This document shows, one piece after another, positions 2,582 through 60,536 of a stretch of DNA of 64,000 nt (position 1 is the stretch's first letter; the number at the start of each line of letters is the position of its first letter). Origin of the DNA: Alphaproteobacteria bacterium UBA3635 (lineage in GTDB: Bacteria > Pseudomonadota > Alphaproteobacteria > Rs-D84); the NCBI GenBank assembly GCA_002373935.1, contig DFKW01000002.1, forward strand, positions 4,819 to 68,818. The letters run 5' to 3'. The notes beneath the pieces are model-generated. The model was not told the DNA's origin. It ran no database searches and was given only the letters and a program-made list of their open reading frames with translations. The translations under genes were made by a program, and so were the position numbers.

Positions 2582-5419
2582 TTATTTATTCAAATATTTC
2601 TTCAGGTATTTCCCCGTCAGCGATTCCGCAACATCGGCAACCTGTTCCGGTGTCCCGGTTGCCACAACGCGACCGCCCGCGTCACCACCGTTTGGTCCCA
2701 AATCAATAATCCAATCCACAGATTTAATAACATCTAAATTATGTTCAATAACGATAACCGTATTACCGGCATCAACCAATTCTTGCAGAACATTTAGCAA
2801 CAATTTTATATCTTCGAAATGCAATCCGGTCGTCGGTTCATCCAAAATATAAATTGTTTGTCCGGTACTGACCGCACTCAATTCCTTGGACAGTTTTATG
2901 CGCTGGGCCTCGCCACCGGATAAGTCCAAAGAACTTTGTCCCAATTTGATATATTCCAACCCAACGCGTTTTAACAATTCCAATTTCCGCGCAATTTTTG
3001 GCACATTGATAAAGAATCGATACGCTTCTTCTACGGTCATATTCAAAACATCTGCGATTGATTTATCTTTGTATTTAACCGCCAATGTTTCATCGTTATA
3101 ACGCGTTCCATGACATTTTTCACATTCAACATAAACATCTGCCAAAAAATTCATTTCAATTTTGATTTGACCGTCGCCCTGACACGCCTCGCATCGACCG
3201 CCTTTGACATTAAAAGAAAATCGTCCCGATGTATAACCGCGGGCCTTGGCCTCGGGCAAATTAGCAAAGAAATCACGAATATCCGAAAACACACCAACGT
3301 ATGTTGCCGGATTACTGCGCGGGCTGCGTCCAATTGGTGATTGGTCAATATCAACAACTTTATCAACATTTTCCATACCACGAATAACATCGTGCGCGCC
3401 AATTTCCAGTTTAGAATTATAAATCGCACGCATTAACGCCGGATATAAAGTATCCAACAACAATGTCGATTTTCCCGACCCCGATACACCGGTCAACGCA
3501 ACAAATTTACCCAATGGGATTTCCACATCAATATTTTTCAAATTGTTCGCGCGTGCGCCCTTGATAACTATGGATTTTCCATTACCCGCACGACGCGTGG
3601 TGGGAACCTCTATACGGCGGGCACCCGATAAATATTGTCCCGTCAAAGAATCCGGATTTTCAATTACCTGTTGTGGTGTCCCCGCCGCTATAATATTACC
3701 GCCATTTATACCCGCACCACGACCAATATCAACCAAAAAATCCGCCGCACGCATTGCGTCTTCGTCATGTTCAACAACAATAACCGTATTATCCTTGTCA
3801 CGCAAAGTTTTTAATGTATCTAACAATTTGTCATTATCACTCTGGTGCAGACCAATCGACGGTTCATCCAACACATACAAAACCCCGGACAAACCCGACC
3901 CAATTTGCGATGCCAATCGAATACGTTGTGCCTCGCCCCCAGACAGGGTTCCCGCCATACGCGACAAAGTTAAATACCCCAACCCAACATTTTCCAAAAA
4001 ATGTAATCTGTCGGTAATTTCACGCAGGACAATTTTCGCAATATCATTTTCCTGAACTGTTAAATGATTCGGCAAATCCCGGAACCAGCGCAACGAATCA
4101 GACACCGATAAATCGCACGCATCAATAATATCAAACCCATTTATTTTTACACACAGCGCATGAATATTTAACCGCTTGCCATGACACATTGGACATTCTG
4201 TTTCAGATTGATATTTACCCAATTCTGTGCGCACCACATCCGAATCAGATTCCCGCAACCGCCGTTCCAGGTTTGGCACCACCCCTTCGAACGGTTTTGA
4301 ATACACAAATCCGTTCCAATTTATCTTTATTTCTTCATCCCCCGTTCCATACAAAATAATATTACGATGTTCCGCACTCAATGTATGCCACGGTTTAGAC
4401 AGCGATATTTTATATTTTTTATGCAACGCCTCAAACAAATGGTCATATTGGGTCAACATCCCGCCACGCGACCATGGCGCAATCGCCCCACCCAATATAG
4501 ATTTTGTTGGGTCCGGAACAACTAAATCCGGTGAAACATTTAATTGCACGCCCAAACCACCACATGTCGGACACGCCCCAATCGGCGCATTAAAAGAAAA
4601 TAATCTGGGTTCGATTTTCGGCACGGTAAAACCACTGACGGGACATGCATAGTTTTGCGAATATAATACATCTTCGTTTGTATCCAACCGCCGCACCAGC
4701 ACCACACCCGGCACCAAACGCAACGAGGCCTCGAACGAAGAATACAGGCGCGATTTGAATTCATCAATATTTGCATCATCCGCCGCCGGCATTTGCAACC
4801 GGTCAACAATAACAAAAATATTATGCTTTTTATTTTTATCCAACTGTGGCGCACTGCCCAAATCGACCAATTCATTATCGATAATTGCACGGGTAAAACC
4901 TTGCTTGACCAAAAAAGCCAATTCTTTTTTATATTCACCCTTGCGATCACGGACCAATGGCGCCATAACATAGAACCGCACATTGACCGGTATTTTCATG
5001 GTCCAATCGACCATTTCTGCAATTGTTTGTGATTTAATTGGCAATCCCGTCACCGGCGAATGAGGCACACCAATCCGCGCCCATAACAAACGCAGGTAAT
5101 CATAAATTTCCGTGACCGTCCCCACAGTTGACCGCGGGTTTTTCGATGTTGTTTTTTGCTCGATAGAAATTGCGGGCGCCAAACCCTCGATAAAATCGAC
5201 ATCTGGCTTTTTCTGCATATCTAAAAATTGCCGTGCATACGACGACAAAGATTCAACATAACGACGTTGCCCCTCGGCATAAATGGTATTAAATGCCAAC
5301 GACGATTTTCCCGACCCCGACACACCGGTAAAAACCACCAATTTGTTTTTTGGTATGTCCAGGTCAATATTTTTAAGATTGTTTTCGCGTGCACCGCGAA
5401 TTTTTATTGTTCCACTCAT
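2582..5419 (-). CDS. uvrA: Excinuclease ABC subunit A
   Basis: 945 aa. Two ABC ATPase modules (GVSGSGKSS and GVSGSGKST) and CxxC zinc-finger pairs, colinear with UvrA. Confidence 0.97.
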
Positions 5420-19150: not shown

Positions 19151-19166
19151 TCCGCTTTCGGGTTTA

Positions 19167-19206
19167 CCCACAAAATTTTTCAAATTTTGCGGGGCCCGTT
19201 TTCGCC
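19167..19206 (+). repeat. Copy 2 of the ~40-bp repeat with core AATTTTGCGGGGCCCG
   Basis: Lies 17 nt downstream of tRNA-Leu. Matches 15665-15703. Confidence 0.6.
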
Positions 19207-19313
19207 GCAGCGAGATTACGCCCACAAGCAAATAAACAACAAGCAAATACAATATAAAAATATCCTTGCTCGCCATTTAATTTTTTTGCTAACATTTTAA
19301 CTAAAGAAAGGAA

Positions 19314-22181
19314 ATGAGGGCTCTAAATCTGTTTTTAGCCGTGTTTTTCGCTGTGCCAATCTGTGATGGCGCAGTTGCCGCCGTTGCAAAAAATGCGACA
19401 CGGTCACAAAACACATCGGCACGCACAACCCAAAACATATCAACACGTGGTGCCCAAACAATCCGATCACGAACACAATCAAATACAACGGTGTCATCAC
19501 GCACGGCAACAAATAAAAATATCATATCTCGTCCGGCATCAACCATATCGCGCACGGCAACGGCAACCCGCGCCACAACCGCGCGCACGGCAACGAATAA
19601 ATCCACCACATCACGTGCGGCGGTCCACCCACAATCACGCATATCTCGTACCGGCGTGTCACGTGCGGCAACAACAACCCAAACACGTGATGCGATAATG
19701 TCGCGCGATTTTGGCAAATGTAAAACTGTATTTTTCGATTGTATGGATGAATTTTGCGCTAACAAGGATGCACAACTGAAACGATGCGCATGTTCGACCC
19801 GTGCGAACGAATTCACGGCAACGAAAAAATCATTGGACGATGTCGAAGATAAATTATTAGATTTCAGTCAACGCCTGCTTCGGGTCAACATGGACCCGAA
19901 CGATGCCGCGGTTATAAACCGTGCAACCGAGGGCGAGACGGCATATTACGCAACCGCGGACAAAACCGCATCTAAAAAAACATTGGATGAAATTGCGAAA
20001 AAATTAAATGCCAATTTTGAACAGTCGGGCAACAACATGTCTGCACTGTCATGGTCTTTGGACATTGATTCGGCGTTTGATTCTGTTGACCCATTATCGG
20101 GTGCATCAACAACGGCAAAATCCGGTGTTGCGTTGCGTAATGCGGCACTGCCAATTTGTCGTGAAATGGCGGCCGAGGTTTGTGATGCTACCGACATCAC
20201 ACTGGTTGAAAACAGTTATAATATGGCGATTGAACAAGATTGCAATACGGTCAAAAAATCGTTTGAAACACAAACACAATCGGCACGCACAAAAATATTG
20301 GAATCGGGCGCACTGTTGGACATGACGCGGTTAAATAAATACCAAGAAAACAATGCCGACGACATTTTGACATGCAAATCGAAAATGTTGGATATGTTGA
20401 CCGATACCAATGTATGCGGTACGGATTTAACAAAATGTTTGGATATATCGGGGCGATATATAAACCCAACAACGGGCGCGGCGTTTTTGTCACCGGAACT
20501 GGTGAATATATCGACATTGATTGTGCGACCAACATCTAGCGATTCTTGGGCAAAAATACCGCAAAACGCATCATTTGTGTCATACCTGAATGCCAAGAAA
20601 AAATACATTGAACCTGCAACAAAAAATTGTGAATCTATTGCCGACGATGTATGGGACACATTTATCGACGATGCATTGGCAAAAATAAAATTGGCACAAA
20701 ATGCCAAATTGGAAGAAGTGCGTCAATCATGCACAACATTGTTGACCGAATGCATTGCCAACGCAAACGACAGTTTATCTGAATTTGATTCACGTGCCCT
20801 GTCAACATTTGGTGTAATATCTGACAAAACGGCAAACGCATTGTGCGAAAATGTGCGCGCATCTTGCAACGCGATTATGCAATACAGTCCTGACGACACA
20901 ATCCAAATTGCCACCAACCAAAACGCATGGTCTGACGGCGTTCGCGACATTGCGGCAAGCGAAACATATAATAAAATTATAAACACATGTCGTGAAATTG
21001 GACGCGATTGCATAATAAATTCTTGCAAATCAATCACGGGTAATTTCGGTCTGTGCGAAAGTATAAACGGTTCGGTCAACCGTCATTCGATATTGACACG
21101 TGCGGCATGCTGGAACGAGGTTTATAATTGTGTCGCATCGGCCAGTAACGAAACTATTAAAAATATATACAACATTTTACCAAACGCCGACACCGCACCG
21201 CAAAGTTTGTATGAACAAATGTACAGCCAACAATTGACATCATTGGGCGACAATTCCGTATATGATATATGCCGCGATGGCGAAGGAAAATGCACCCAAC
21301 AATCCGGCACAACCGCCACAGATCGTCCCGACACAGATTGCTATAAATGTCGTATTGCCGAACAAATTTGGGGCAATTGCAAATCCAAACCCGACAACCG
21401 TTCTGAAAATCCAATTTTGACTCCAAACGACCCGGCAACAACAACATTATTATCATGGTTTGCTAAAAATACACATACCGACACCGACAAAAATTCATGT
21501 GCGACATCCATTTGTCCCGCGGGCAGTTTAGATTATACCGTTGGCACATCAATTATGTGTGTCGCACCAAATAACATTGTTCAATGTCCAACACAAAACA
21601 TTTTATGCCAGGAAACATTTACAACCCCAACCGGCACAACAAACTGTTGTCCGACAAATAATTTTGATATTGCCGGCAATTGTTGCATGGATAATATGAT
21701 ATCGCAATACACAGATCATATATCTGATAACACCTATACCGGCGCATACTGCACCAAAACCGGCACATCAAATATGACCCAGGTTGCTCAATACACAACC
21801 AACAACACAACAACGCGCATATTCTGCACCGGGGACGTGACCGGTACGATTGGCGACGAAGCACAGGTAAATTGCAATGGCGATTATATAATTGTTGAAT
21901 GCAACGGGACAACCTGCACATACAAAACCCCAATACCGGCGGGCAACGGGATTGATTATACAGATGATTACAGTGCGAACTATTTCATCAACGCCGACGG
22001 CGCAACGGTGTCCGGCACCGGCGACAATCAAACAATAACCACAATAACCGACAGCGCGGACCTGAGCGCATATTGCCCAACAAACGACGACCACCAACCC
22101 AACCAATGCACCCGCACCACAACCGGCTGGACCGGCAACGGATGTGGTGGCACCGGCGGTCATTGGATGATAAAATTTTAA
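19314..22181 (+). CDS. Very large secreted Cys-rich protein (955 aa) with Ser/Thr/Arg-rich N-terminal low-complexity region
   Basis: AAGGAA SD and signal peptide MRALNLFLAVFFAVPICDGAVAA. Residues ~25-125 are repetitive (SRTAT-type). Many Cys follow, starting at FGKCKTVFFDCMDEFC. Ends ...HWMIKF. Confidence 0.75.
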   Translation: MRALNLFLAVFFAVPICDGAVAAVAKNATRSQNTSARTTQNISTRGAQTIRSRTQSNTTVSSRTATNKNIISRPASTISRTATATRATTARTATNKSTTSRAAVHPQSRISRTGVSRAATTTQTRDAIMSRDFGKCKTVFFDCMDEFCANKDAQLKRCACSTRANEFTATKKSLDDVEDKLLDFSQRLLRVNMDPNDAAVINRATEGETAYYATADKTASKKTLDEIAKKLNANFEQSGNNMSALSWSLDIDSAFDSVDPLSGASTTAKSGVALRNAALPICREMAAEVCDATDITLVENSYNMAIEQDCNTVKKSFETQTQSARTKILESGALLDMTRLNKYQENNADDILTCKSKMLDMLTDTNVCGTDLTKCLDISGRYINPTTGAAFLSPELVNISTLIVRPTSSDSWAKIPQNASFVSYLNAKKKYIEPATKNCESIADDVWDTFIDDALAKIKLAQNAKLEEVRQSCTTLLTECIANANDSLSEFDSRALSTFGVISDKTANALCENVRASCNAIMQYSPDDTIQIATNQNAWSDGVRDIAASETYNKIINTCREIGRDCIINSCKSITGNFGLCESINGSVNRHSILTRAACWNEVYNCVASASNETIKNIYNILPNADTAPQSLYEQMYSQQLTSLGDNSVYDICRDGEGKCTQQSGTTATDRPDTDCYKCRIAEQIWGNCKSKPDNRSENPILTPNDPATTTLLSWFAKNTHTDTDKNSCATSICPAGSLDYTVGTSIMCVAPNNIVQCPTQNILCQETFTTPTGTTNCCPTNNFDIAGNCCMDNMISQYTDHISDNTYTGAYCTKTGTSNMTQVAQYTTNNTTTRIFCTGDVTGTIGDEAQVNCNGDYIIVECNGTTCTYKTPIPAGNGIDYTDDYSANYFINADGATVSGTGDNQTITTITDSADLSAYCPTNDDHQPNQCTRTTTGWTGNGCGGTGGHWMIKF

Positions 22182-27791: not shown

Positions 27792-27795
27792 CCAA

Positions 27796-27825
27796 TTTTC
27801 GTTATTGCGCGTGAAACGCACAATT
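27796..27825 (+). repeat. Perfect 30-bp direct repeat, copy 1 (TTTTCGTTATTGCGCGTGAAACGCACAATT)
   Basis: Identical to 27913-27942. Contains the hairpin that follows the tRNA. Confidence 0.9.
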
Positions 27826-27899
27826 AAGAAAATTGAGTGCCACGCCGTAGCTATGCATAACCTGGGAAATATATTTCAGATTTATCGGCGAAGGCGGGC
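27826..27899 (+). repeat. 76-nt repeat family, copy A
   Basis: AAGAAAATTGAGTGCCACGCCGTAGC ... TATCGGCGAAGGCGGGC. Same end blocks as copies B-E. Confidence 0.8.
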
Positions 27900-27912
27900 T
27901 AAACAAATCGAT

Positions 27913-27942
27913 TTTTCGTTATTGCGCGTGAAACGCACAATT
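27913..27942 (+). repeat. Perfect 30-bp direct repeat, copy 2
   Basis: Identical to 27796-27825. Confidence 0.9.
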
Positions 27943-30657: not shown

Positions 30658-30978
30658 GCAAATGTGAATCCAAAAAAAACTAAGGGAGTTGGATTCCGGT
30701 GGCTTTAGCAGGCCTGTATATCCGGTGCAAGATTTGCATCGTGACTCTCCCACACTCGCCCGATTCGATTCGGCGGGGTTGTGTTTGTCGCATTTCATTT
30801 TTTGCACCGACATTTATTTATCGTCGGTAAAAAAAAATTACCCGGATTTATAAATGCAGATTTTTCCCATGTGATAACCCCTGAAGCGAAATTATGTTTC
30901 GTCGGGGTGCCGCGGTGTCGGATAAAAACGCCCGTGGAATCATTGATATACTGATTTGCTAACACCCCGGCCGTATTC

Positions 30979-31009
30979 CCGTTGGATTCCCAGCGGTTTT
31001 TTTATTTTT
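30979..31009 (+). terminator. Terminator-like hairpin plus T-run inside the leader (candidate attenuator)
   Basis: CCGTTGG-ATTC-CCAGCGG then TTTTTTTATTTTT, about 50 nt before the ATG. The T-run block is conserved in the paralogous leader. Confidence 0.45.
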
Positions 31010-31060
31010 GCAATCGCGAAAATAGAAAAACGCAGAACCAAAAGAACGGGGAGAAAAGTT

Positions 31061-32863
31061 ATGAGAAAAATTTTATTGGGATTGGTTGGGGTTGTCTGTG
31101 CATTATTCGCGGTGCCGGCGCACGCCGCATTACCTGGTGGATATACTGAATTAGAGTATATCGAAAGCACCGGGACACAGTATTTGGATTTGGATACCGG
31201 TACACAAACAGGTGTGTTCAAAATTATTGCCGATGTGTATGCAGCGGGTTCTACAAGTTGGCAATATTTATTTGGTTATTCAACAGATACTGGTGGCAGC
31301 CCTTTAGGTGTTTGGGTTTCAAACAACAAGATAAAAGAAACTTTTGCAGCTGGGAACGGAAATGTTATCGCAGATGTGAACAAATGGGAACATATAGATA
31401 TAACTAATTCGGACACTGTCACGATATCTGATTTTTATATATTTCATGTAAATCCGACCGGTATTACAAGTTATACAATTAATCCTGGAAGGATTAAATA
31501 TTTACAATTAAAAAAAGATGGAGACACTATTCGCGATATGGTCTCGGCGAAACGGAACAGCGACGGCGCGATTGGTATGTACGACACGGTTGGCGGGCGG
31601 TTTTATACCAATGCCGGGACTGGCACTTTCATTGCCGGCCCCGAAACAACAGGCCCATGTGCGAATATGTTTAATTTATCAATCATAACACAGGGGCTAA
31701 TAAATTCTAAAAACGGTGAATTCTCAGCAACGGAAGAACTTTATTATTCAACTGATTACGTGTCTATTACAGCAAATACAGCATATGTTTTATCGCCTGC
31801 AAAACTAGGTTCGTCTCTTTATGGTTTGGCTTGGTTCAATTCAAATAAACAATATATTTCTGGAAGTTTATACAGTGGTGAAAATTCACAAAAGTTTGTT
31901 GCACCAAATAACGCAAAATACGTAAGGTTTAGTGTGTACGAACCTTATGCGACAGAAACATCTTTCAAACCCGCGTCATGTGTCGAGATTCAGGTTGCGA
32001 CGACGAAATATGTTGAAACGCAGTTTAGTGATTTAGGGACACGGTTGGCGGCGGCGGTCGCGACGGTGAACACCGTTGTCACGAACACTATCAATCAGGC
32101 GGCGAGTATTGCGACACTGCAATCGGGGAAGCAAACCCGCCCAGCGAACGACACCTGTCCCGCCGGCAAGAAATGCCTGCTGGTCACCGACGAAAATAAT
32201 GTTCCCCACTGGTACGAAATATTCGACCCGATAAACCGCTGGATGGAGGCATTTTTCAAAACAAACCCGGACGGACAATATGTCGATGGTGGCGCAGATT
32301 TCCGCCGGTGGCAGGGCAACCCAGATTTCCGCAAAACATATATTGATGGTTCAACATCTGTCTATGTTCGGCAATGGACGGAGGCGTCGCCCGTACGCAC
32401 GGTTGGCGGCATGTATCAAACTTTGCCCGCGGGTGATATTGAAAACGCGGGTTCTTGGGCGGTTGAATGGGATGGGACCGAGGGCGACATCGACGCGGGC
32501 GCGGTGTACGGTATTGCAAAATGCACGTCTGTGGCGGGGACATTTGCCAATAAATTGACATCGGCGAACGAGAGCGCGTTCTATGAATTGCCGGCACCGG
32601 TGGGTCAAACGGACCGCACGGGATATGAACGGGAAAACTTTAAACAGTGCTGGTGCAAGATGACGGCGGTTGGTGTCCCTGGCGAGGATGGAACGGCTGC
32701 AAACGGGGATGTTTACCCTGTAAACCAGTCGTCCTCTGCGTGGGTCTTCGCCGACACGTACGGTTCGGCCGCCAATTGTGCGAACATCTGTGCGTACGAC
32801 TGCGCGGACCGCGTCCGTCTTAGCGCGTCGTTTCGGTCTGCGGTGTTTGGATTATCGGAGTGA
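31061..32863 (+). CDS. Large secreted modular protein, paralog 1 (600 aa; module order A-B-C-D)
   Basis: ATG 31061 after a GGGGAGAAAAG SD; the track start 30956 lies in the leader hairpin. Signal peptide MRKILLGLVGVVCALFAVPAHA. Shares the GYTELEYIESTGTQY, RNSDGAIGMYDTV..TNAGTGTF and ATTKY..IATLQSGKQTRPANDTCP..PHWYEI modules with 51408-53537. Confidence 0.8.
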   Translation: MRKILLGLVGVVCALFAVPAHAALPGGYTELEYIESTGTQYLDLDTGTQTGVFKIIADVYAAGSTSWQYLFGYSTDTGGSPLGVWVSNNKIKETFAAGNGNVIADVNKWEHIDITNSDTVTISDFYIFHVNPTGITSYTINPGRIKYLQLKKDGDTIRDMVSAKRNSDGAIGMYDTVGGRFYTNAGTGTFIAGPETTGPCANMFNLSIITQGLINSKNGEFSATEELYYSTDYVSITANTAYVLSPAKLGSSLYGLAWFNSNKQYISGSLYSGENSQKFVAPNNAKYVRFSVYEPYATETSFKPASCVEIQVATTKYVETQFSDLGTRLAAAVATVNTVVTNTINQAASIATLQSGKQTRPANDTCPAGKKCLLVTDENNVPHWYEIFDPINRWMEAFFKTNPDGQYVDGGADFRRWQGNPDFRKTYIDGSTSVYVRQWTEASPVRTVGGMYQTLPAGDIENAGSWAVEWDGTEGDIDAGAVYGIAKCTSVAGTFANKLTSANESAFYELPAPVGQTDRTGYERENFKQCWCKMTAVGVPGEDGTAANGDVYPVNQSSSAWVFADTYGSAANCANICAYDCADRVRLSASFRSAVFGLSE

Positions 32864-44172: not shown

Positions 44173-44271
44173 AATTTGTTCCTTTCACACAACATAATAT
44201 CAAACCATATAAATTTTGAAAAGCCAAAAAATTACCCCGCCACTTTGGCGGTTTTGATAAACGAAAATTGG

Positions 44272-44347
44272 TGGCTACGACGGGGGATTCCCTCGGTCGG
44301 CTTTGCCGACACTGCGGGGAAACCGTGACGATTTGATTGCAATGCGC
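44272..44347 (-). pseudogene. Degenerate tRNA-Ser(CGA)-like relic ending in ...GCCACCA
   Basis: Aligns to the 3' two-thirds of the adjacent tRNA, with a T-loop deletion, a changed acceptor and an inserted hairpin. Followed by a 37/39 copy of the tRNA downstream terminator. Confidence 0.6.
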
Positions 44348-44368
44348 TTATCAAAAAAATATAATTTT

Positions 44369-44446
44369 GCCCGCCTACGCCGACAAAAACAAAGTATTTT
44401 TTCCAGATTACGAACAATGCTACGGCGCGGCACTCAATTTTCTTAA
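44369..44446 (-). repeat. 76-nt repeat family, copy D
   Basis: The reverse complement reads TTAAGAAAATTGAGTGCCGCGCCGTAGCATTG ... TGTCGGCGTAGGCGGGC. Confidence 0.8.
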
Positions 44447-44489
44447 ATCAAAAACCGCCATATTGGCGGTTTTGATAAACGAAAATTGG

Positions 44490-44580
44490 TGGCGGAGATA
44501 GGGGGATTCGAACCCTCGATACGGTCGCCCGTATACACGATTTCGAGTCGTGCGCATTCAACCAGCTCTGCCATATCTCC
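44490..44580 (-). tRNA. tRNA-Ser, anticodon CGA (class II)
   Basis: Acceptor GGAGATA/TATCTCC, anticodon stem CACGA/TCGTG with loop CTCGAAA, long variable arm, T arm GAGGG-TTCGAAT-CCCCC, encoded CCA. Confidence 0.9.
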
Positions 44581-45876: not shown

Positions 45877-47124
45877 TCAGTTTCGGCAATTTGAAAATTG
45901 CGATGCAATCAATGTTGCCTCGGCATCGGTCAATGTTTGCACCGGCACGATATAGCAACGGGTTGTATCACGAATAATAAATACCTTGGTACCTTTTTTA
46001 TATGCCTCTTGCATTTGCGACATTTGAGAACTTGTTAAAAATGCATTTGCCGTCAGCACAGAATTTGTTAAACCCGCATTTACAACCTGGGTTGCAGTGG
46101 CGCTATCAATTAAATTACCGTTGGATAAAACCTCCATCCAAAAATTTGAATACGCACCCGGCGTCACGGCATTTTTTGCAACCGTCGCCGCATCCGGCAA
46201 TTTCTTATCGCCTGTTAATAAAGACGCCGCAACCAACAACCCGGCGGTCCCTGTTGTTGAAACCGTTGCCGCACTTGGGTTCATTTGTAAATTATCTCCA
46301 CATGCCAAATTCATACGATTTGTATATCCCGCCAACACATTATCAACCGCCGATTGCCAATCTGCGCCCTTGGCATTGACATCCAAACCAACGATTTTTT
46401 CGGCCCATCCCCAAACATTCGCGCCGACATTACCGGCATTTACAAAACGCGACACCATTTCGGCCGACCCGCCCGGCACACCCGACCCACAATAATCCGT
46501 CAATTGTGCGGTCAATTTACTGGTTGTGTCATTACCATACGCCAACGCCACCGAATGACAAGACATCGCGGCATTTAATTCCTGGCGCCGTTGAATACAT
46601 AAATCCGAACTGGACCGGGACAATTTATCCGCCATATTTGCCATAGACAACCATGTCATCAAATTTTCCTGGACATATGCCGGACATAACCGCGCCGCGG
46701 TATTCATCGCACCCGTACTGTATTTAGTATTCACATTATATTGTGGCAACAGTTGCGAATTATCTTTCTGCAGACACAACAATGCATAATTATACAAATC
46801 ATTTTGCGATACATACGCACACTTATTTTGAACAATTCCTCCCGCAACAGTTGTTCCATCGCAATATTCGTTCAAACATTGCATAATGCGTTCAGAACAC
46901 GCGGTTCCAACATCCAATTGAGTTGCCATATAATAATTTGCCAACTGATTTTGTTTATATGCGTTTGCAATTCCCGCCATACCGCGCAAACCATTACCAT
47001 TTGCATTTGATACCAACGCACGATTGGCATTTGATGTCGCGACCGTCCCCGCAGACACCGCCATCGCACCGTTCGCGCCAAACACAATTGCAACCAGGCC
47101 ACATAACGCAACAAATCTTTTCAT
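45877..47124 (-). CDS. Secreted Cys-containing hypothetical protein (415 aa)
   Basis: Signal peptide MKRFVALCGLVAIVFGANGAMA. The CSERIMQCLNEYC motif resembles CKTVFFDCMDEFC of the 955-aa protein. Confidence 0.65.
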   Translation of the reverse strand: MKRFVALCGLVAIVFGANGAMAVSAGTVATSNANRALVSNANGNGLRGMAGIANAYKQNQLANYYMATQLDVGTACSERIMQCLNEYCDGTTVAGGIVQNKCAYVSQNDLYNYALLCLQKDNSQLLPQYNVNTKYSTGAMNTAARLCPAYVQENLMTWLSMANMADKLSRSSSDLCIQRRQELNAAMSCHSVALAYGNDTTSKLTAQLTDYCGSGVPGGSAEMVSRFVNAGNVGANVWGWAEKIVGLDVNAKGADWQSAVDNVLAGYTNRMNLACGDNLQMNPSAATVSTTGTAGLLVAASLLTGDKKLPDAATVAKNAVTPGAYSNFWMEVLSNGNLIDSATATQVVNAGLTNSVLTANAFLTSSQMSQMQEAYKKGTKVFIIRDTTRCYIVPVQTLTDAEATLIASQFSNCRN

Positions 47125-48307: not shown

Positions 48308-49579
48308 TTATTCTGCGTTCATAAAATCCAAAACGCGTTTATCAAAAATCACATCACGCGGACGCAGCGGTGACGCCACATGCATATCCGCCGCGCTGCG
48401 CGTGCGCGACAACGCGACATATGTTTGCCCGTGCGCAAACGCGCCACGCGAAATATCAACCACCACCGCATCCAGTGTTTTACCCTGGGCCTTGTGAATT
48501 GTCATTGCATACCCCAGATTCAGTGGGAATTGTTTATAAGACCCGATTTCATGTTCTTGCAATCTGTCGTTTTCATCGCGAATATATTCGATTTTTTCCC
48601 ATTTTTCCGGTTTAACATTTACAAGCGTCCGCGCCGCATTTAATAGTTCAACTTTCAACCCATGCACACCCATATCGACAATTCGCCCCATCGAACCATT
48701 GTGCCATTTATCGCCATTTTTCACGAACACCACCAGCGCACCAATTTTCAGGTTTAATTTCATCGGCGCCGGCACATCTTTTTCAGAAAAATTTCCCTCC
48801 AACACACCAACAAAAGAAATTTCCGGTGCATTTATTGCACGCAGCCGCGCCGCATTTATATATTCGGCCTGTTGCCGATATGGCGTAATTAAAACCGCAT
48901 TTGCGCGCCGCGCCGCATCCGTAATTTTGCATTTATTAAAAAAATCCAACGCGCCCACATCACCCCCACGCAACCGCACCAGGTTATCCAACAATTCCCC
49001 ATCGTTTTGTCGATAAACCCTGTCAAAAGAAAACCGCACAAAATCGGACCGCGCATACACATGGCTATCAAAAAAATAAGAATTTTCGAAACCATATTCT
49101 TGCCTGTAATAATCCACCGCATCATTTGTGATAACCGGCGGCAATTGAAATAAATCACCGATGGCGACAATTTGAATTCCACCAAACGGGTCGTTATTCC
49201 GCCGTGCCTGACGTGCCAATAAATCCATCGCATCCAATAAATCGGGCGCAACCATAGAAACCTCGTCAATAATCAAGACATCGGTTGCCGTCAAAATATT
49301 GCGTGTTTTTGCCTTTAACTTTAAAAATTCAGGCATAATAAAATCGCGCGGTTGGATTTGAAACAAACTGTGAATTGTTTGTCCCCCGATATTCAGCGCA
49401 CTGACCGCGGTCGGACATGCACACACAATACGTTTTTTCGATGCACTTTTCAGATAATTGATAAATGTAGATTTTCCGGTTCCGGCCTGGCCCATGATTA
49501 AAACATTTTGATGCGTGCGTTCAATAGTATCGAACGCCAACTTTTGCACATCACTTAAAATCTGAACCAATTCTGTCAT
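48308..49579 (-). CDS. SF1 RecD/Pif1-like ATP-dependent DNA helicase
   Basis: 423 aa. Walker A GQAGTGKST, LIIDEVSM, and a C-terminal YAMTIHKAQGKT block. Confidence 0.75.
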   Translation of the reverse strand: MTELVQILSDVQKLAFDTIERTHQNVLIMGQAGTGKSTFINYLKSASKKRIVCACPTAVSALNIGGQTIHSLFQIQPRDFIMPEFLKLKAKTRNILTATDVLIIDEVSMVAPDLLDAMDLLARQARRNNDPFGGIQIVAIGDLFQLPPVITNDAVDYYRQEYGFENSYFFDSHVYARSDFVRFSFDRVYRQNDGELLDNLVRLRGGDVGALDFFNKCKITDAARRANAVLITPYRQQAEYINAARLRAINAPEISFVGVLEGNFSEKDVPAPMKLNLKIGALVVFVKNGDKWHNGSMGRIVDMGVHGLKVELLNAARTLVNVKPEKWEKIEYIRDENDRLQEHEIGSYKQFPLNLGYAMTIHKAQGKTLDAVVVDISRGAFAHGQTYVALSRTRSAADMHVASPLRPRDVIFDKRVLDFMNAE

Positions 49580-51006: not shown

Positions 51007-51070
51007 TATACAAAACCGCCGAAATGGCGGTTTGAATTTCTGGCGCCTGTGCCACGAAGCCTTGGCGAAG

Positions 51071-51128
51071 TGGCGCGCCCAGCAGGACTCCCTCGCTCGG
51101 CACTCTGTGCCGGCTGTGGGGCATTCGT
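51071..51128 (-). other. Displaced 20-nt tRNA-Arg(TCT) 3' end fused to the conserved arm motif
   Basis: 51071-51090 is identical to 51274-51293. The minus strand reads ACGAATGCCCCACAG-CCGGCACAGAGTGCCG-AGCGAGG then GAGTCCTGCTGGGCGCGCCA. Confidence 0.75.
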
Positions 51129-51232
51129 TAGCACTCAAACTGCGCTATTGCTCGTTTTCGCTTACTCATTGTCGAACCAGACAACAATATTATTGTTGGC
51201 GATTGATTCTCGTCAATCCACTGAACACGACA

Positions 51233-51268
51233 AATAAAAAAACGCCACCTGAACGGTGGCGTTTTTTT
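51233..51268. terminator. Hairpin with flanking A- and T-runs directly 3' of tRNA-Arg(TCT)
   Basis: CGCCACC-TGAAC-GGTGGCG with an A-run upstream and a T-run downstream. Confidence 0.7.
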
Positions 51269-51273
51269 ATTTC

Positions 51274-51350
51274 TGGCGCGCCCAGCAGGACTCGAACCTG
51301 CAACCCACAGATTAGAAATCTGTTGCTCTATCCAATTGAGCCATGGGCGC
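51274..51350 (-). tRNA. tRNA-Arg, anticodon TCT
   Basis: Acceptor GCGCCCA/TGGGCGC, anticodon stem ACAGA/TCTGT with loop TTTCTAA, T arm GCAGG-TTCGAGT-CCTGC, encoded CCA. Confidence 0.9.
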
Positions 51351-51407: not shown

Positions 51408-53537
51408 TCACATCCCAAGCAACACAGAACGGACGGTTCCATGCTCGCGAACGTAAGTCGCGCAGCGGTACGCACAGTGGGTCGCACACTCAGTCGTTGA
51501 ATCGTATGGGCTGGAAAACACCCACAAATCCGAAGACGGCGCGACATTGTATTCCCCACCAACGGTTAATCCTGACACTTTGCACCAACACCCTGTCCCT
51601 GTTGTATTCCAATTCGCATTACTTAATTGACTCGATGTTGCGGCGGTCGCATATGTCCCACTTACCCCATTACACAACCCCTCGCCATACACTGTGCCGG
51701 CGCTGATACCATTGCTGGCATTGGCGGTCCAAGTCGCAGTCCAAGTCGGGTTCGCCGGAACATCGGTATTCGCAACGGTCGGTCCCGCGGTGAATGTGCC
51801 TGTGCCCGCATTGGTAAAGAAAGTTTTCGTGACGGTATCATACATCCCAATCGCACCGTCGCTGTTGCGACGCACAGGAATCATATTGCGGATCAGGGTA
51901 CCACTGGTATTTTTATGTTGATACGAATATATACGTGCTTTTGTTAAATAATTACCAGCAAAGAACAAATACATATGACCAGAAGTTTGAAAATCTGTTG
52001 ATAAAGCCTCCACAGCAACAACATCATCAAACGATAGCTTTCCTTGACCCATTGTAATCACATGCGACAAACCATCATCAGTTGGAGGTGTAGCAAATTC
52101 AATCCATGCGCTTGTGTCATAAAACAGAGTTCCTCCTGTGGGATACATGTTATAAAAACTTACCGTTGCCGACTTACCATTGCTGGAAAAATAACCAAAT
52201 AGCATATGACTTCCGCTTTCACGTGTTATATTGGAATATTTAACGGTAACCAAGTCAGTTCCTGAAAACGCAACCCCCGTATCAATATATTGTGTTCCGG
52301 TGGATTCAATGTATTCCAGCTGAGTATAACCCTGGGTGGATGTTGATGATGCCGCGTTGACATTATTCGCGATGATGGGGGCGACGAAATCCCGGAACGG
52401 GTCGGTGATTTCGTACCAGTGTGGAACACCTTGCTCATCCTCAACCAACAAACATTGTTTATACGCCGGGCAAGTGTCGTTCGCAGGGCGGGTTTGCTTG
52501 CCACTCTGCAAAGTCGCAATACTGGCGGCCTGGGCAATCGTTCGCGACACCACACTGTCCACCACACTAATCGCATTTTGCAGCGCCGTATTCAGCGGAT
52601 TAAACACCGTCTCGGTGTATTTTGTGGTTGCAATTTTTATCTTTGTTTCATGACATCCTGGATGATACGGCACATACGCCGTGGCGGTCGAACCCAATTC
52701 CAATTGAGGGTTTGCGTTTATAACATCTTGGACGGACAACTCAGAATTATCAGGTTTTTGTAATGAGAATCGCATATATCTTGCATTTTCGGGAACGGTT
52801 GCATTGAACTGATTTGTTGAGGACATTAACAGGAAAGATTTATTTTCATCGTAAAAATATGAACCATGAACAATGATATTACTATTGCTGGATGAAAACA
52901 CATATTTTTGCCCCGGGGTGACGGGAATATATTCCGACATCGCGACACGGTGTGTCATTGTTCCTGCATTTGTGCCAGTATCATCTTGAATTCCTATCTG
53001 TTGTAGCAAATTTGGGTCTAACAAATTCTTACACCGTTCCATACATGTTGCATCGTATGGCGTGTATGGTGTTGCGGTGGAACCTTGTTCGATCATCGGT
53101 CTGACCACAAGGTTATTTGCAGTGTATCCGCGCATAATGCGAATTGCGTACATACCAAGTCGCCATTCTGATGTTGCTGTACGCCTAATTGGGTCACCGG
53201 TTCTTGTGTCAAAAAAATCTGAAGTTGCATTACCACTTATATAGCCCCCATATAAATCCAAAATGTATGTTGAAGATGAGCCACCCGTTATGCCAGAAAT
53301 AGTATATGTGCCCGCAGGTAGCACCAAGTTATTTGCAGAATTAGCAACTATATAATTTGCATACTCAGAATCATCGTTTACAGAACCGTTGATAATTATT
53401 GAACCATCCGGTTGTGGTGTAAATGTAACGCCGTGCACTGTAACTGGTGATGTGTTATAAACCGGCAGCAAATTGCAATTTGCAAAACTTGGTATCGTGA
53501 ATAACAACCCGATTATTGCACATAATATTTTTCTCAT
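51408..53537 (-). CDS. Large secreted modular protein, paralog 2 (709 aa; module order B'-B-C-A-D)
   Basis: ATG 53537 after an AAGGA SD; the track start 53645 lies in a non-coding leader insert. Signal peptide MRKILCAIIGLLFTIPSFA. Shares modules with 31061-32863 in a different order. Confidence 0.8.
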   Translation of the reverse strand: MRKILCAIIGLLFTIPSFANCNLLPVYNTSPVTVHGVTFTPQPDGSIIINGSVNDDSEYANYIVANSANNLVLPAGTYTISGITGGSSSTYILDLYGGYISGNATSDFFDTRTGDPIRRTATSEWRLGMYAIRIMRGYTANNLVVRPMIEQGSTATPYTPYDATCMERCKNLLDPNLLQQIGIQDDTGTNAGTMTHRVAMSEYIPVTPGQKYVFSSSNSNIIVHGSYFYDENKSFLLMSSTNQFNATVPENARYMRFSLQKPDNSELSVQDVINANPQLELGSTATAYVPYHPGCHETKIKIATTKYTETVFNPLNTALQNAISVVDSVVSRTIAQAASIATLQSGKQTRPANDTCPAYKQCLLVEDEQGVPHWYEITDPFRDFVAPIIANNVNAASSTSTQGYTQLEYIESTGTQYIDTGVAFSGTDLVTVKYSNITRESGSHMLFGYFSSNGKSATVSFYNMYPTGGTLFYDTSAWIEFATPPTDDGLSHVITMGQGKLSFDDVVAVEALSTDFQTSGHMYLFFAGNYLTKARIYSYQHKNTSGTLIRNMIPVRRNSDGAIGMYDTVTKTFFTNAGTGTFTAGPTVANTDVPANPTWTATWTANASNGISAGTVYGEGLCNGVSGTYATAATSSQLSNANWNTTGTGCWCKVSGLTVGGEYNVAPSSDLWVFSSPYDSTTECATHCAYRCATYVREHGTVRSVLLGM

Positions 53538-53590
53538 TTTTCCCGTCCTTTTCTTTTCGATTTGTGTTTCACACAACGGTGAAACCGTTG

Positions 53591-53768
53591 TGTCATCCCG
53601 AGGGAGCAAAACCTGCGATGTCGCGCATTCGCAGTTTTGCGACACGTGGGGATCCAGGTCTATTAAAGTGTCGGCACAGCCGACGGCTTTATTATTAACT
53701 GGATTGCCACGCGTCGTTTTTACGTTCTTGGCGTTCCGCCAAGGTGTAAAAACTCCCTCGCAATGACA
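53591..53768. repeat. 178-bp segment bounded by 16-bp imperfect inverted repeats (TGTCATCCCGAGGGAG / CTCCCTCGCAATGACA)
   Basis: 14 of 16 positions are complementary. Lies inside a 355-bp stretch that is absent from the paralogous leader. Confidence 0.6.
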
Positions 53769-54296: not shown

Positions 54297-54341
54297 GAAT
54301 ATTTTTGAACTGCCCCGTCTGTTTCGCTGACGTGATGGTTT

Positions 54342-54417
54342 GCCCGCCTTCGCCGATAACAGTAAAGTTTTTTTCTTAAAAAACGAACAATGCTACGGCG
54401 CGGCGCTCAATTTTTTA
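54342..54417 (-). repeat. 76-nt repeat family, copy E
   Basis: Identical to the reverse complement of copy B. Confidence 0.85.
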
Positions 54418-54576
54418 TCCTCGCGTTGCTTCGGTAAAAATTGGCGACGGGGAATGTCCAGAATAATAATTATTCATCAACCACAGTCGCGGCTCTGCGA
54501 CAGCAGAGACGGATGAACTCTGCCTGCGCCCCATAGCCCAACGGGCGACGGGGTGAACTCTGAAAACTGAACACTG

Positions 54577-59195: not shown

Positions 59196-59313
59196 ATCTT
59201 TTTCGTCCCTTTGAATTTTTATCCCCTAAATCATAGCCACATTTGCAAATATTATCAAGCCCAAAGTTCCCCGCCAAATTCTACCACAGCAACGCGTGCA
59301 TTAAAAAAAACAT

Positions 59314-59532
59314 AGGATTCAAACCAATCGACACAGTATAAAAATAAAATCGGCATAAATGCCGATTTGAAAATTCGCAACGCGTCAATGCCGATAATCG
59401 CGGCTTTGCCTGCGGCAAAGACGGATGGCGGAGCGTGTAGGATTTGAACCTACGGACCGCGTTACCACGGTCACGGATTAGCAATCCGCTGCATTTACCC
59501 CTCTGCCAACGCTCCGGATGGTTGGTATTATA
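59314..59532. repeat. 219-bp direct repeat, copy 1 (tRNA-Ser(GCT) plus 112-nt tail plus 17 nt upstream)
   Basis: Differs from 60290-60508 at a single position (59516 G versus 60492 T). Confidence 0.95.
59426..59515 (-). tRNA. tRNA-Ser, anticodon GCT, copy 1
   Basis: Acceptor GGAGCGT/ACGCTCC, anticodon stem GCGGA/TCCGT with loop TTGCTAA, long variable arm, T arm GTAGG-TTCAAAT-CCTAC, encoded CCA. Confidence 0.9.
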
Positions 59533-59548
59533 TATTTTTTTGCACCTT

Positions 59549-60049
59549 TTATTTATTTTTCAGGTATATTGATTGTTCGTGGTGTACAAATGCAGCCATA
59601 ATCTTGGAAATATCAAGGTTAGGATATCTTTCAATTTGTTGTTTTCGGTTTTGATTAAATTCTGCTATCGCACGCTCAAACATTTCATCCAAACTGATTG
59701 GATTTAATATTTCAATTTTATTTGCACCGCATTGATAAATTCCTATCCCGTCCATGCAACGTTCTTTGAATACATTGGTCAGGGGTTGTATTTCGTATAT
59801 TGTATGTTGTTGATATTCGGTGTTGTCCCAAATTAACATACTTTGCCACAACATAGTATCAAAAGCACCCTCGGCAAAATGCAGAACGGCTTTTTTTATG
59901 CCCTTATAATCTTTTGTTATATTTGGAATGCTTGCTGTATATTTTGTTCCATACTGTATTTTTGACGAGTCTGTAATATGATAAGCACTCCAAAAAAGGG
60001 ATGGGAGTGCAATAATTTTATAATATATTGGTTTAAACTCGTTTGCCAT
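59549..60049 (-). CDS. Hypothetical protein (166 aa), the only gene between the two tRNA-Ser(GCT) copies
   Basis: ATG 60049 after an AAGGAAG SD. Has its own strong promoter. No recognisable family. Confidence 0.65.
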   Translation of the reverse strand: MANEFKPIYYKIIALPSLFWSAYHITDSSKIQYGTKYTASIPNITKDYKGIKKAVLHFAEGAFDTMLWQSMLIWDNTEYQQHTIYEIQPLTNVFKERCMDGIGIYQCGANKIEILNPISLDEMFERAIAEFNQNRKQQIERYPNLDISKIMAAFVHHEQSIYLKNK

Positions 60050-60099: not shown

Positions 60100-60164
60100 A
60101 TTTTATTACGATGCTTTTTTGTGGAATATAAATTAAAACCGACCAACAGGTCGGTTTAAATTTG

Positions 60165-60219
60165 TGGCGGAGCGTGTAGGAGTTCGCTCGACACATAAAT
60201 GTGTCTGTGCGGCATTCGT
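60165..60219 (-). other. Displaced 17-nt tRNA-Ser(GCT) 3' end fused to the conserved arm motif
   Basis: 60165-60181 is identical to the tRNA 3' end. The minus strand reads ACGAATGCCGCACAG-ACACATTTATGTGT-CGAGCGAAC then TCCTACACGCTCCGCCA. Confidence 0.75.
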
Positions 60220-60289
60220 ATTGTGTTTATTACACTGCCGTTTATAAACACAAACTCATAGTGAACCAAGGGACAACGATGTTGTCCAC

Positions 60290-60508
60290 AGGATTCAAAC
60301 CAATCGACACAGTATAAAAATAAAATCGGCATAAATGCCGATTTGAAAATTCGCAACGCGTCAATGCCGATAATCGCGGCTTTGCCTGCGGCAAAGACGG
60401 ATGGCGGAGCGTGTAGGATTTGAACCTACGGACCGCGTTACCACGGTCACGGATTAGCAATCCGCTGCATTTACCCCTCTGCCAACGCTCCTGATGGTTG
60501 GTATTATA
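60290..60508. repeat. 219-bp direct repeat, copy 2
   Basis: See 59314-59532. The repeat period is 976 bp. Confidence 0.95.
60402..60491 (-). tRNA. tRNA-Ser, anticodon GCT, copy 2
   Basis: Identical to copy 1. Confidence 0.9.
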
Positions 60509-60536
60509 CTGTTTTTTTTATCAAACACAAGTCAAA

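Follow-up and report, generated by a model that had tools for sequence, protein, structure and literature searches.

The 64,000-nucleotide stretch of Alphaproteobacteria bacterium UBA3635 (contig DFKW01000002.1), hereafter called the window, contains seven tRNA genes detected by ARAGORN: tRNA-Arg(tct), two copies of tRNA-Ser(gct), tRNA-Ser(cga), and three others. Three of these genes are followed by a small non-coding unit that has a conserved core and a displaced copy of the tRNA 3' end. The initial annotation had reported such displaced ends behind the Arg(tct), Ser(gct), and Ser(cga) genes, and they are real at all three loci. The 3' end of tRNA-Arg(tct) recurs as an exact 20-nucleotide copy at 51071-51090, 183 nucleotides beyond the gene. 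That of tRNA-Ser(gct) recurs at 60165-60184, 217-220 nucleotides beyond the gene, with 19 of 20 matches (17 nucleotides exact). The tRNA-Ser(cga) copy at 44272-44290 is degenerate, as had been noted, with the divergence in its acceptor part. Identity from the T-loop to CCA holds in all three, as do the reported lengths of 20 and 17 nucleotides and the distances of 183 and 220 nucleotides. However, the Ser(cga) copy lies ~199 nucleotides beyond its gene, and the reported ~180 was about 20 nucleotides short. This copy is followed by a near-identical tRNA trailer and terminator, within a 50-nucleotide repeat (44237-44286 and 44455-44504) that is 86% identical.

The motif at 51091-51128 makes up the 3' half of a conserved core of 81 nucleotides. 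On the tRNA strand, it resides directly 5' of each displaced tRNA copy at all three loci. The 15-mer ACGAATGCCSCACAG has exact matches at 51114-51128 and 60205-60219, but on its own, with three mismatches allowed, it has 3 matches in the window versus 4.06 expected, which is not above chance. A core profile built from related copies (nhmmer) matches only three places in the window, with E values of 4.7e-20, 2.7e-14, and 5.8e-4. All three are directly behind tRNA genes, namely Arg(tct), Ser(gct), and Ser(cga), and the weakest match, at Ser(cga), is truncated at its 5' end. Chance is ruled out as the source of the displaced ends and cores by the tRNA-end copies together with the profile matches. 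The proposal that the three arms share one architecture is also upheld, because the arms align and the profile finds these places only. The components of the three units are as follows, where L-numbers designate public loci that were examined.

Positions 51274-51350, minus strand: intact tRNA-Arg(tct), the host gene of unit 1 (ARAGORN; Rfam tRNA, 72.1 bits).
Positions 51232-51273, minus strand: proximal trailer of unit 1 and terminator-like hairpin with a T-run, recognized by eye (GCCACC..GGTGGC plus T7); a simple terminator scan made no call here.
Positions 51182-51231, minus strand: leader of unit 1, corresponding to the 3' third of the tRNA in degenerate antisense form (from the sequence, the minimum free energy [MFE] fold, and cognate pairing); it carries the conserved motif GACGAGAAT, in which the TCGAA of the antisense T-loop has become GAGAA, as well as an inner hairpin CAACAAT-AAT-ATTGTTG, and in the MFE fold it pairs with both the 3' copy and the T5' segment.
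Positions 51172-51181, minus strand: T5' mimic of unit 1, TCTGGTTCGA, the sense T-stem 5' strand and T-loop to A58.
Positions 51091-51171, minus strand: a-type core of unit 1, 81 nucleotides (nhmmer E = 4.7e-20; 81/81 identical in L241), in the order CAATGAGTA, hairpin P2, ACGAATGCCCCACAG, hairpin P3, CGAGCGAGG.
Positions 51071-51090, minus strand: U2 of unit 1, the exact 20-nucleotide sense copy of the Arg(tct) 3' end, from T-loop G57 to CCA.
Positions 51041-51070, minus strand: 30-nucleotide insert "Y," CTTCGCCAAGGCTTCGTGGCACAGGCGCCA, which ends in a further degenerate tRNA-end copy.
Positions 51011-51040, minus strand: distal trailer of unit 1, GAAATTCAAACC, and terminator hairpin CCGCC..GGCGG with a T-run; compared with L243, this trailer resembles the one behind the intact Arg(tct) gene.
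Positions 60402-60491, minus strand: intact tRNA-Ser(gct) #1, the host gene of unit 2 (ARAGORN, Rfam).
Positions 60263-60401, minus strand: trailer of unit 2 (with insert "Z" at 60372-60401), terminator, antisense leader (arm ..GTGTCGATTGGTTTGAATCCT; inner hairpin GGACAAC-ATC-GTTGTCC), and T5' mimic CTTGGTTCA.
Positions 60184-60261, minus strand: core of unit 2, reading CTATGAGTT, P2, ACGAATGCCGCACAG, P3 ACACATTTATGTGT, CGAGCGA (nhmmer E = 2.7e-14).
Positions 60165-60183, minus strand: U2 of unit 2, the Ser(gct) 3'-end copy, 17 nucleotides exact.
Positions 60123-60164, minus strand: the unit's own trailer and terminator after U2.
Positions 59426-59515, minus strand: second tRNA-Ser(gct) gene (ARAGORN), absent from the initial annotation.
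Positions 44490-44580, minus strand: intact tRNA-Ser(cga), the host gene of unit 3 (ARAGORN, Rfam).
Positions 44366-44441, minus strand: "D2" repeat, resembling a miniature inverted-repeat transposable element (MITE), found where the leader and 5' portion of unit 3 would be expected; an 83% copy is at 54339-54414.
Positions 44291-44363, minus strand: 5'-truncated core of unit 3, with a P2 remnant, ACGGTTTCCCCGCAG, P3 TGTCGGCAAAGCCGA, and CCGAGG (nhmmer E = 5.8e-4); it covers model positions 23-89 and is of a subtype shared with the Arg(tct) locus of L242 and L243.
Positions 44232-44290, minus strand: U2 of unit 3, GAATCCCCC with a diverged acceptor strand and CCA, then the trailer and terminator copy.

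The two tRNA-Ser(gct) genes lie in a 231-nucleotide direct repeat (59311-59541 and 60287-60517; 98% identical, spacing 976 nucleotides) that covers part of the promoter, the tRNA, the trailer, and the start of the antisense arm. The repeats enclose unit 2 and an open reading frame (ORF) of 166 amino acids (59549-60049) without a Pfam match. A 48%-identical homologue of this ORF adjoins a Ser(gct) unit in L210.

Related units were sought by scanning a gapped motif pattern in public metagenome contigs (at least 120 stretches) and species-representative genomes (at least 118 stretches). About half of the pattern matches are chance matches in GC-rich genes, and the remainder share the whole core and upstream sequence. 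A profile search of all loci produced at least 146 matches in 122 loci, with at least 135 full-length matches and at least 138 distinct copies. Among the matches listed, a same-strand tRNA is present within 1.5 kb upstream of 93 of the 138 distinct copies, and a sense copy of the last 16 nucleotides of the tRNA is found downstream of 66 of 109 tRNAs with a core, compared with 5 of 32 tRNAs without one. Those five core-less tRNAs, and one antisense-only locus, hold other or divergent cores. The host tRNAs, again among the matches listed, belong to at least 22 anticodon species. The idea of one miniature, non-coding, non-autonomous family joined at the T-loop to many tRNA species is therefore supported well beyond the three species for which it was advanced. 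The same tRNA species can have or lack a unit depending on the genome; for example, tRNA-Arg(ccg) has none in the window and is followed by one in L046, L078, and L185.

The labeled hosts are almost all uncultured gut Alphaproteobacteria, assigned to Candidatus (Ca.) Enterousia and the order Rs-D84. Ca. Enterousia belongs to this order, and its genomes are mostly smaller than 1 Mb, with a coding density of about 90% (PMC12306168). The metagenome-assembled genomes (MAGs) that carry units include RUG and RGIG rumen MAGs, horse and sheep gut MAGs, and termite-gut MAGs labeled Rickettsiales. Single MAGs contribute several contigs, as with SRR873606_bin.9, which yielded L137, L158, L190, L208, and L225. 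The window itself was found again in a metagenome assembly (AUXO01) and in run SRR873603. Four contigs binned as Muribaculaceae (Bacteroidota), L148, L170, L173, and L200, carry typical units behind Arg and Met tRNAs; these represent either mis-binned alphaproteobacterial DNA or a broader host range.

The core is roughly 81-89 nucleotides long and has the consensus GAC(A/T)ATGAGT, hairpin, ACGAATGCC(G/C)CRCAG, hairpin, CGAGCGA(GG). Its single-stranded stretches are near-invariant, whereas the two hairpins, P2 and P3, vary in sequence and length yet stay paired. P2 and P3 are unlike each other. Among the matches listed, P3 occurs in 85 distinct versions, in which 342 Watson-Crick pairs are opposed by only 4 G-T and 10 A-C oppositions. 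In the X-Y pair that joins GCC[X]C with GAG[Y], all 20 copies where X is C have C-G, and those where X is G mostly have G-C or G-T. In P2, RNAalifold predicted five pairs from a MAFFT alignment, and all five show double compensatory changes; because the hairpins differ in length, this approach recovered only part of P2. Subfamilies a, b, and c are distinguished by the P2 region, and a shorter subfamily, d, ends in CGAGG.

Neither the core nor the arms, when both strands were compared, show a strand preference in folding energy or an enrichment of G:U pairs on the tRNA strand. Because of this lack of strand bias, the sequence does not decide whether the structure forms in RNA or in single-stranded DNA. 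Hairpins that are nearly pure Watson-Crick without a G:U strand bias fit palindromes that act at the DNA level.

The anatomy of the whole unit emerged when sequences from each tRNA to the end of its unit were lined up. Units are 150-210 nucleotides long, and everywhere the order on the tRNA strand is tRNA, trailer, terminator-like hairpin, leader, T5' segment, core, and tRNA 3' copy. The T5' segment is a sense copy of the T-stem 5' strand and the T-loop to A58 (nnGGTTCGA; tRNA positions about 49-58). The 3' copy is sense tRNA sequence from T-loop nucleotide 57 or 59 to CCA (76), often extended by the trailer and terminator. The core interrupts this partial tRNA copy at nucleotides 58/59, after A58 of the T-loop, with junctions of the form GGTTCGA/core/GTCC or core..GAGG/GAGTCC. 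In the short form, the last three core bases (CGA) coincide with T-loop C56-A58, and tRNA identity extends over 21-24 nucleotides; in the long form, to which the window Arg unit belongs, the core ends with CGAGCGAGG and is followed by GAGTCC. The copy runs on through the host trailer and terminator in L022, L023, L046, L094, L103, and L117, and the two trailers differ in the window Arg and Ser(gct) units and in L025. The duplicated segment thus varies from 17 to more than 60 nucleotides.

The leader is a degenerate antisense copy of the 3' third of the tRNA. It includes the antisense T-loop with the conserved change from TCGAA to GAGAA, in motifs such as GGACGAGAACC. Both arms track the host tRNA. 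The duplex between leader and 3' end has an energy of -14.3 kcal/mol for the cognate tRNA versus -9.6 kcal/mol for non-cognate tRNA species (p = 1.5e-11), and the T5' segment shares 7.66 versus 6.68 identities of 10 (p = 3.6e-9). The T5' segment follows even rare host T-loops, such as GGTCCGA of Met and GGTTTGA of Val. In MFE folds of eleven units, the leader is paired with the 3' copy and with the T5' segment in all of them, and the predicted closing helix has 12 base pairs (bp) followed by NCCA. These folds suggest that the unit is a long hairpin whose base would resemble the acceptor/T-stem stack of the neighboring tRNA, CCA included, and whose core would branch off at the T-loop position.

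A terminator-like hairpin follows nearly every unit. No consensus promoter was found between terminator and unit in a consensus scan of L094. A promoter-like TTGACG..AATAAT in the window unit coincides with the conserved GACGAGAA arm motif and was not counted. Certain c-type cores without a tRNA end occur as direct repeats of ~150 nucleotides that flank a small ORF, as in L061 and in L013 (433-600 and 1275-1425), where the ORF has 135 amino acids and the first copy is between the stop codon of a gene and its terminator. These c-type cores still have a terminator downstream.

Enzymes that might act on the units were sought in the window and its relatives. Pfam searches of the ~50 ORFs in the window revealed no integrase, transposase, reverse transcriptase, or TnpB domain, and only housekeeping genes were recognized; the earlier observation that the window lacks an integrase is therefore correct. 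Among the matches listed, all-against-all clustering of 626 neighboring ORFs identified no partner gene that recurs beside units, and gave only locus-specific synteny and a surface-repeat protein family. A crude tyrosine-recombinase box-II motif is present in 0 of 943 ORFs in the 122 loci, within the same set of matches. No IscB or Cas gene is present in the window or recurs near the loci.

Known families were considered as well. Rfam 15 matches only tRNAs in the window at the gathering score, and on nine loci, at E <= 10 and E <= 1, it gave only tRNAs and noise, with nothing on the units. A known RNA family, such as ribozymes, small RNAs, tmRNA, or Y RNA, was rejected because no Rfam covariance model matches, and ARAGORN detected no tmRNA in the window or the loci. 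The core is not a tRNA intron, because its removal restores a tRNA for ARAGORN in 0 of 123 cores. Hammerhead, box C/D, and bulge-helix-bulge structures were dropped by eye, since core positions do not fit. A MITE derived from a DDE transposon was rejected because the inverted arms are local tRNA copies that differ by locus and the duplication has no fixed length. There is no match to viral-contig patterns and no blastn match in phage or plasmid collections, so an origin from these sources was also rejected. Literature searches produced no description of such elements. In line with the earlier impression, the units could not be placed in any described family; they are of the small structured-repeat kind.

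The conserved scaffold is followed directly by 17-20 nucleotides identical to the tRNA end, the pre-target GGTTC is the same in all tRNAs, and the tRNA copy stops at CCA in some units. These features recall a guide RNA (a TnpB omega-RNA or a homing CRISPR RNA) or a retroelement template with a tRNA-like priming end, in which the tRNA copy acts as a guide or primer-binding sequence. This explanation is highly unlikely. A free 3' guide, as in an omega-RNA, was rejected because the tRNA copy is paired with a matching antisense arm upstream. The copy often extends through the trailer and terminator, which are sequences of the precursor only. No TnpB, IscB, Cas, or reverse transcriptase gene is present in the window or recurs near the loci, and no omega-RNA, HEARO, or IS605-orfB model of Rfam matches. 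A palindrome-associated transposable element (PATE) of the IS200/IS605 group, or a TnpB omega-RNA, was likewise rejected, because P2 and P3 are dissimilar, the supposed guide is paired with the leader, and no tnpA or tnpB gene is present in the window or recurs near the loci.

The turnover of the units is evident at the orthologous tRNA-Arg(tct) locus, which was taken from relatives through the adjacent HI0933-like gene. The a-type core of L241 is identical to that of the window in 81 of 81 positions, whereas the DNA of the adjacent gene is only 83.2% identical and the trailers differ on both sides of the core. The protein P0002 is identical in four independent assemblies, of which three have a d-type core and one has an a-type core (L241 = L249). 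The exchange between d-type and a-type is exact between GGTTCGA and GAGGGA(A/G)TCC, and the ~6 kb around it shows almost no difference between the two longer assemblies. An assembly chimera is an unlikely cause, because bases specific to the lineage flank the L241 core within 10 nucleotides, and neither putative parent has the GAATCC junction of that core. Among other relatives, the core at this locus is d-type and truncated at its 5' end in L243, d-type in L244, and b-type in L248. The empty site that the initial annotation hoped to find in relatives exists in L246, which has only the tRNA and terminator, although this relative is distant (68% amino acid identity). The public contigs of L243, L244, and L245 end inside or beside the Arg(tct) unit, and the repeat appears to break short-read assemblies.

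Tandem arrays with nested inserts are found in L094 (181-nucleotide period), L025, L125, L208, L225, and L152. The L025 array mixes subfamilies, and in L152 cores abut cores. In L210, the repeat runs on through the leader and T5' segment, which gives a circularly permuted unit. In L138 and L134, the core has the opposite orientation inside a tRNA-Pro 3'-end copy. Moreover, at least four unrelated cores occupy the same frame of antisense arm, core, and tRNA 3' copy. One is a long-hairpin "M" family (L201, L175, L063, and L055; nested in L004, L006, and L158), and others are found in L196, L084, and L160, in L230 and L215, and in L149.

The displaced tRNA ends had been interpreted as the footprint of tyrosine integrases, or as recurrent scars of one element. 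Under this explanation, the units are remnants or miniature versions of tyrosine-integrase elements, the tRNA copy is attR, and the conserved motif is an arm- or core-type integrase site. Like tRNA-targeting integrase islands and cis-mobilizable elements (CIMEs), the units do show the tRNA 3' end as a direct repeat beginning in the T-loop, and an intact tRNA borders them on one side. Proximal and distal trailers differ at some loci (the window Arg unit and L025), as if the distal one were element-borne, and a third, older remnant lies behind the Arg unit. However, the 3' copy belongs to an inverted repeat derived from the tRNA, in which an antisense copy upstream forms the other arm and pairs with it; the displaced end is not an att scar. 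The units differ from islands and CIMEs in their size of 150-210 nucleotides, in the antisense arm and T5' copy that flank the core, in the occurrence of one closely related core at 22 or more tRNA species rather than one or a few, and in the duplication of host-specific trailer and terminator at many loci. Cores are exchanged as cassettes, alone and between near-identical strains, they form arrays, and several unrelated ones share a frame, unlike scars of a single element. A full-length element with an integrase, which the initial annotation proposed to look for, was not encountered, in that no integrase-like gene recurs near the 122 loci among the matches listed; the window, the box-II scan, the recurrent neighbors, and the viral, phage, and plasmid collections were all negative. 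The inverted arms, T5' copy, variable paired hairpins, arrays, swaps, several cores, and lack of an integrase do not resemble attL/attR remnants, and an origin from tyrosine-integrase elements is very improbable, with the repeat from T-loop to CCA as the one feature still in its favor.

The swap, the identical core on an 83% background, the inverted orientation, and the unrelated cores that share one frame lead us to prefer, tentatively, the explanation that the units are non-autonomous selfish mobile cassettes with tRNA-derived arms. We regard this as plausible, if somewhat short of probable. T-loop-like sites between tRNA-derived arms might receive copies of the core and exchange it with one another. 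Folded single strands would undergo recombination or template switching in this process, and the function responsible would be encoded at another place in the genome. Units could then amplify in tandem via their direct repeats, and gene conversion could keep the 3' copy like the adjacent tRNA. Read-through from the tRNA would yield a hairpin RNA with a tRNA-like end.

Several points weigh against mobile cassettes. No mobilizing enzyme was found in the window or the 122 loci, and no insertion into an empty tRNA locus was seen among near-identical strains, L246 being the only empty site. Ordinary homologous replacement of one allele by another, or gene conversion from a paralogue, could also account for the swap. 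An antisense arm that matches each new tRNA is hard to account for; template switching might correct quasi-palindromes, or the adjacent tRNA might act as donor in gene conversion. The conserved change from TCGAA to GAGAA and the near-invariant core junctions point to selection on function. The loci were collected by the core motif itself, and the association figures are therefore biased upward. Finally, the hosts have genomes below 1 Mb with ~90% coding density (PMC12306168), where junk is usually purged.

The main rival, which we judge unlikely on balance, is that the unit is a functional small RNA, or a cis-acting RNA device, built on a tRNA acceptor/T-stem minihelix scaffold. Transcription of the unit would accompany or follow that of the tRNA, RNase P and 3' maturation would act on the helix of leader and 3' copy with its CCA, and the core would thereby end up in a stable RNA. 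In another version, the antisense arm might alternate between the 3' end of the tRNA and the decoy copy, and in this way tune tRNA maturation. The exchange of cassettes would then amount to normal gene conversion between paralogous units. In most copies, the core has the orientation of the tRNA and lies directly behind it, the predicted closing helix of 12 bp ends in NCCA, and a terminator-like hairpin follows nearly every unit, including c-type copies without a tRNA end. T-loop motifs tolerate insertions after A58, and it is after A58 that the core is inserted. Near-invariant junctions, the conserved GAGAA arm change, the persistence of units in genomes below 1 Mb, and a core conserved at 100% beside a gene at 83% also agree with a functional RNA. 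However, no consensus promoter was found between terminator and unit in L094, and in both core and arms the tRNA strand folds no better than its complement and has no excess of G:U pairs. Opposite core orientation in one locus family, tolerance of truncated cores, four unrelated cores in one frame, and presence or absence of the element behind the same tRNA among genomes are likewise difficult to reconcile with it. As in tmRNA, YrlA, viral tRNA-like structures, mascRNA, and synthetic "tRNA scaffold" RNAs, a foreign domain is combined with a predicted acceptor/T-stem helix and CCA. Unlike in those RNAs, the helix is copied from the neighboring tRNA, the domain is at the T-loop, there are many copies per genome, and the processing is a prediction only.

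Perfect Watson-Crick stems without strand bias also suit a substrate for structure-specific, site-specific recombination, in which folded single-stranded DNA arms mimic the T-arm/acceptor target, and a tyrosine recombinase or HUH enzyme encoded elsewhere joins the unit with the tRNA T-loop. Together the arms repeat the target in inverted form, the core branches off at the junction, and this junction is placed precisely at T-loop nucleotides 58/59. Circularly permuted tandem units are as expected from integration of a circle of ~180-210 nucleotides, and both core orientations occur. This explanation is nevertheless improbable. No recombinase or HUH gene was found in the window or near the 122 loci, the hairpin stems are too variable for sequence-specific protein sites, and a new target tRNA would need a joint change of both arms. 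In conserved structure with variable sequence, a stem that partners with the target, and small arrayed cassettes, the units are similar to CTX-phage attP(+) and integron attC sites. They differ in their tRNA T-loop target and their locus-specific, target-derived arms, and no Xer/dif-like motif was found. The R''/R' boxes of attC (RYYYAAC...GTTRRRY) are not visible in unit sequences by eye, with no dedicated motif search made, and no IntI-like ORF is present in the window.

A more far-reaching possibility, which we consider somewhat unlikely, is that the units reflect a new mechanism of insertion or maintenance that templates both direct and inverted copies of the target tRNA end, or a natural "tRNA-minihelix scaffold." The former might be a target-copying system, RNA- or structure-programmed and specific for tRNA T-arms, through which different cassettes enter the T-loop position. 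The latter might mature several unrelated small RNAs, or gate tRNA maturation by alternative pairing among the tRNA end, the antisense arm, and the decoy.

If the units are mobile cassettes, their lifestyle may be comparable to that of Rickettsia palindromic elements (RPEs) or of the REPINs formed by repetitive extragenic palindromic (REP) sequences. RPEs and REP/REPIN sequences are non-coding, hairpin-forming, multi-copy, lineage-specific, and non-autonomous, and they measure ~100-200 nucleotides. The units resemble them in being small, non-coding, hairpin-forming, present in many copies per genome, lineage-specific, and non-autonomous, and in their residence in small alphaproteobacterial genomes. 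The units differ in being tied to tRNA genes, in having arms that are local tRNA 3' copies and not repeats specific to the element, and in having a branched conserved core. In addition, neither a RAYT-like gene nor a REP head of the GTAG type was seen with the units, and Pfam searches of the window gave no Y1_Tnp domain.

Non-canonical tRNA introns of Thermoproteales transpose among tRNA genes, T-arm positions included. Like the units, they are short insertions at precise tRNA positions that have spread over different tRNAs. However, the tRNA interrupted by a unit is never a full gene (0 of 123 restored), the hosts are bacteria, and there is no bulge-helix-bulge. The Mauriceville retroplasmid of Neurospora has a tRNA-like 3' end, and variants gain tRNA sequence and integrate at a tRNA gene by homology. 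A tRNA-derived end with CCA beside the matching tRNA gene, and tRNA repeats, are common to this plasmid and the units. In contrast to the plasmid, no reverse transcriptase was seen with the units, precursor-only trailer is often copied, and the units are 100 times smaller.

Mobile units would be site-specific, protein-less elements with target-copied arms that serve more than 20 tRNA species and persist in genomes below 1 Mb. Two questions would follow: what activity, of the host or acting in trans, moves the units, and how inverted arms that match the target are made. If the units are instead RNAs, they would represent natural tRNA-end scaffolding, or control of tRNA maturation, in an uncultured gut lineage. 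At tRNA loci, the units appear to cause breaks in metagenome assemblies. They further mimic the att scars of integrases, so genomic-island finders that use tRNA 3' repeats would mis-call them.

The surroundings of tRNA 3' ends in these genomes are a general landing zone for small structured sequences. Two small inserts, Y and Z, are located immediately after CCA. Insert Y (window 51041-51070, L243, L078, and L199) follows the displaced CCA at three Arg tRNA species. The Z motif, TCCGTCT-hairpin-GCCGCGATT, begins right behind CCA, both in tRNAs of several kinds and in tRNA copies, at window positions 60372-60401, 59396-59425, 19151-19215, and about 54485-54513, and in L032, L241, L248, and L149. 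It looks like another small structured insert or a trailer module. The MITE-like repeat of ~75 nucleotides, TGCCGCGCCGTAGC ... GGCGAAGGCGGGCAAA, that replaces part of the Ser(cga) unit (44366-44441) recurs in the window at 54339-54414 and about 27829-27899, and in L241 at about 4640-4700. Behind tRNA-Arg(ccg), it is flanked by a 31-nucleotide direct repeat of trailer and terminator (27795-27825 and 27912-27942).

Among other genes of the window, a PIF1-like helicase gene (48308-49579) adjoins tRNA-Met(cat), and its position is kept in all relatives fetched (L241-L248). Large ORFs without a Pfam match are located at 19314-22181 (955 amino acids), 30956-32863 (635 amino acids), 45877-47124 (415 amino acids), and 51408-53645 (745 amino acids). 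The last of these is directly upstream of tRNA-Arg(tct).

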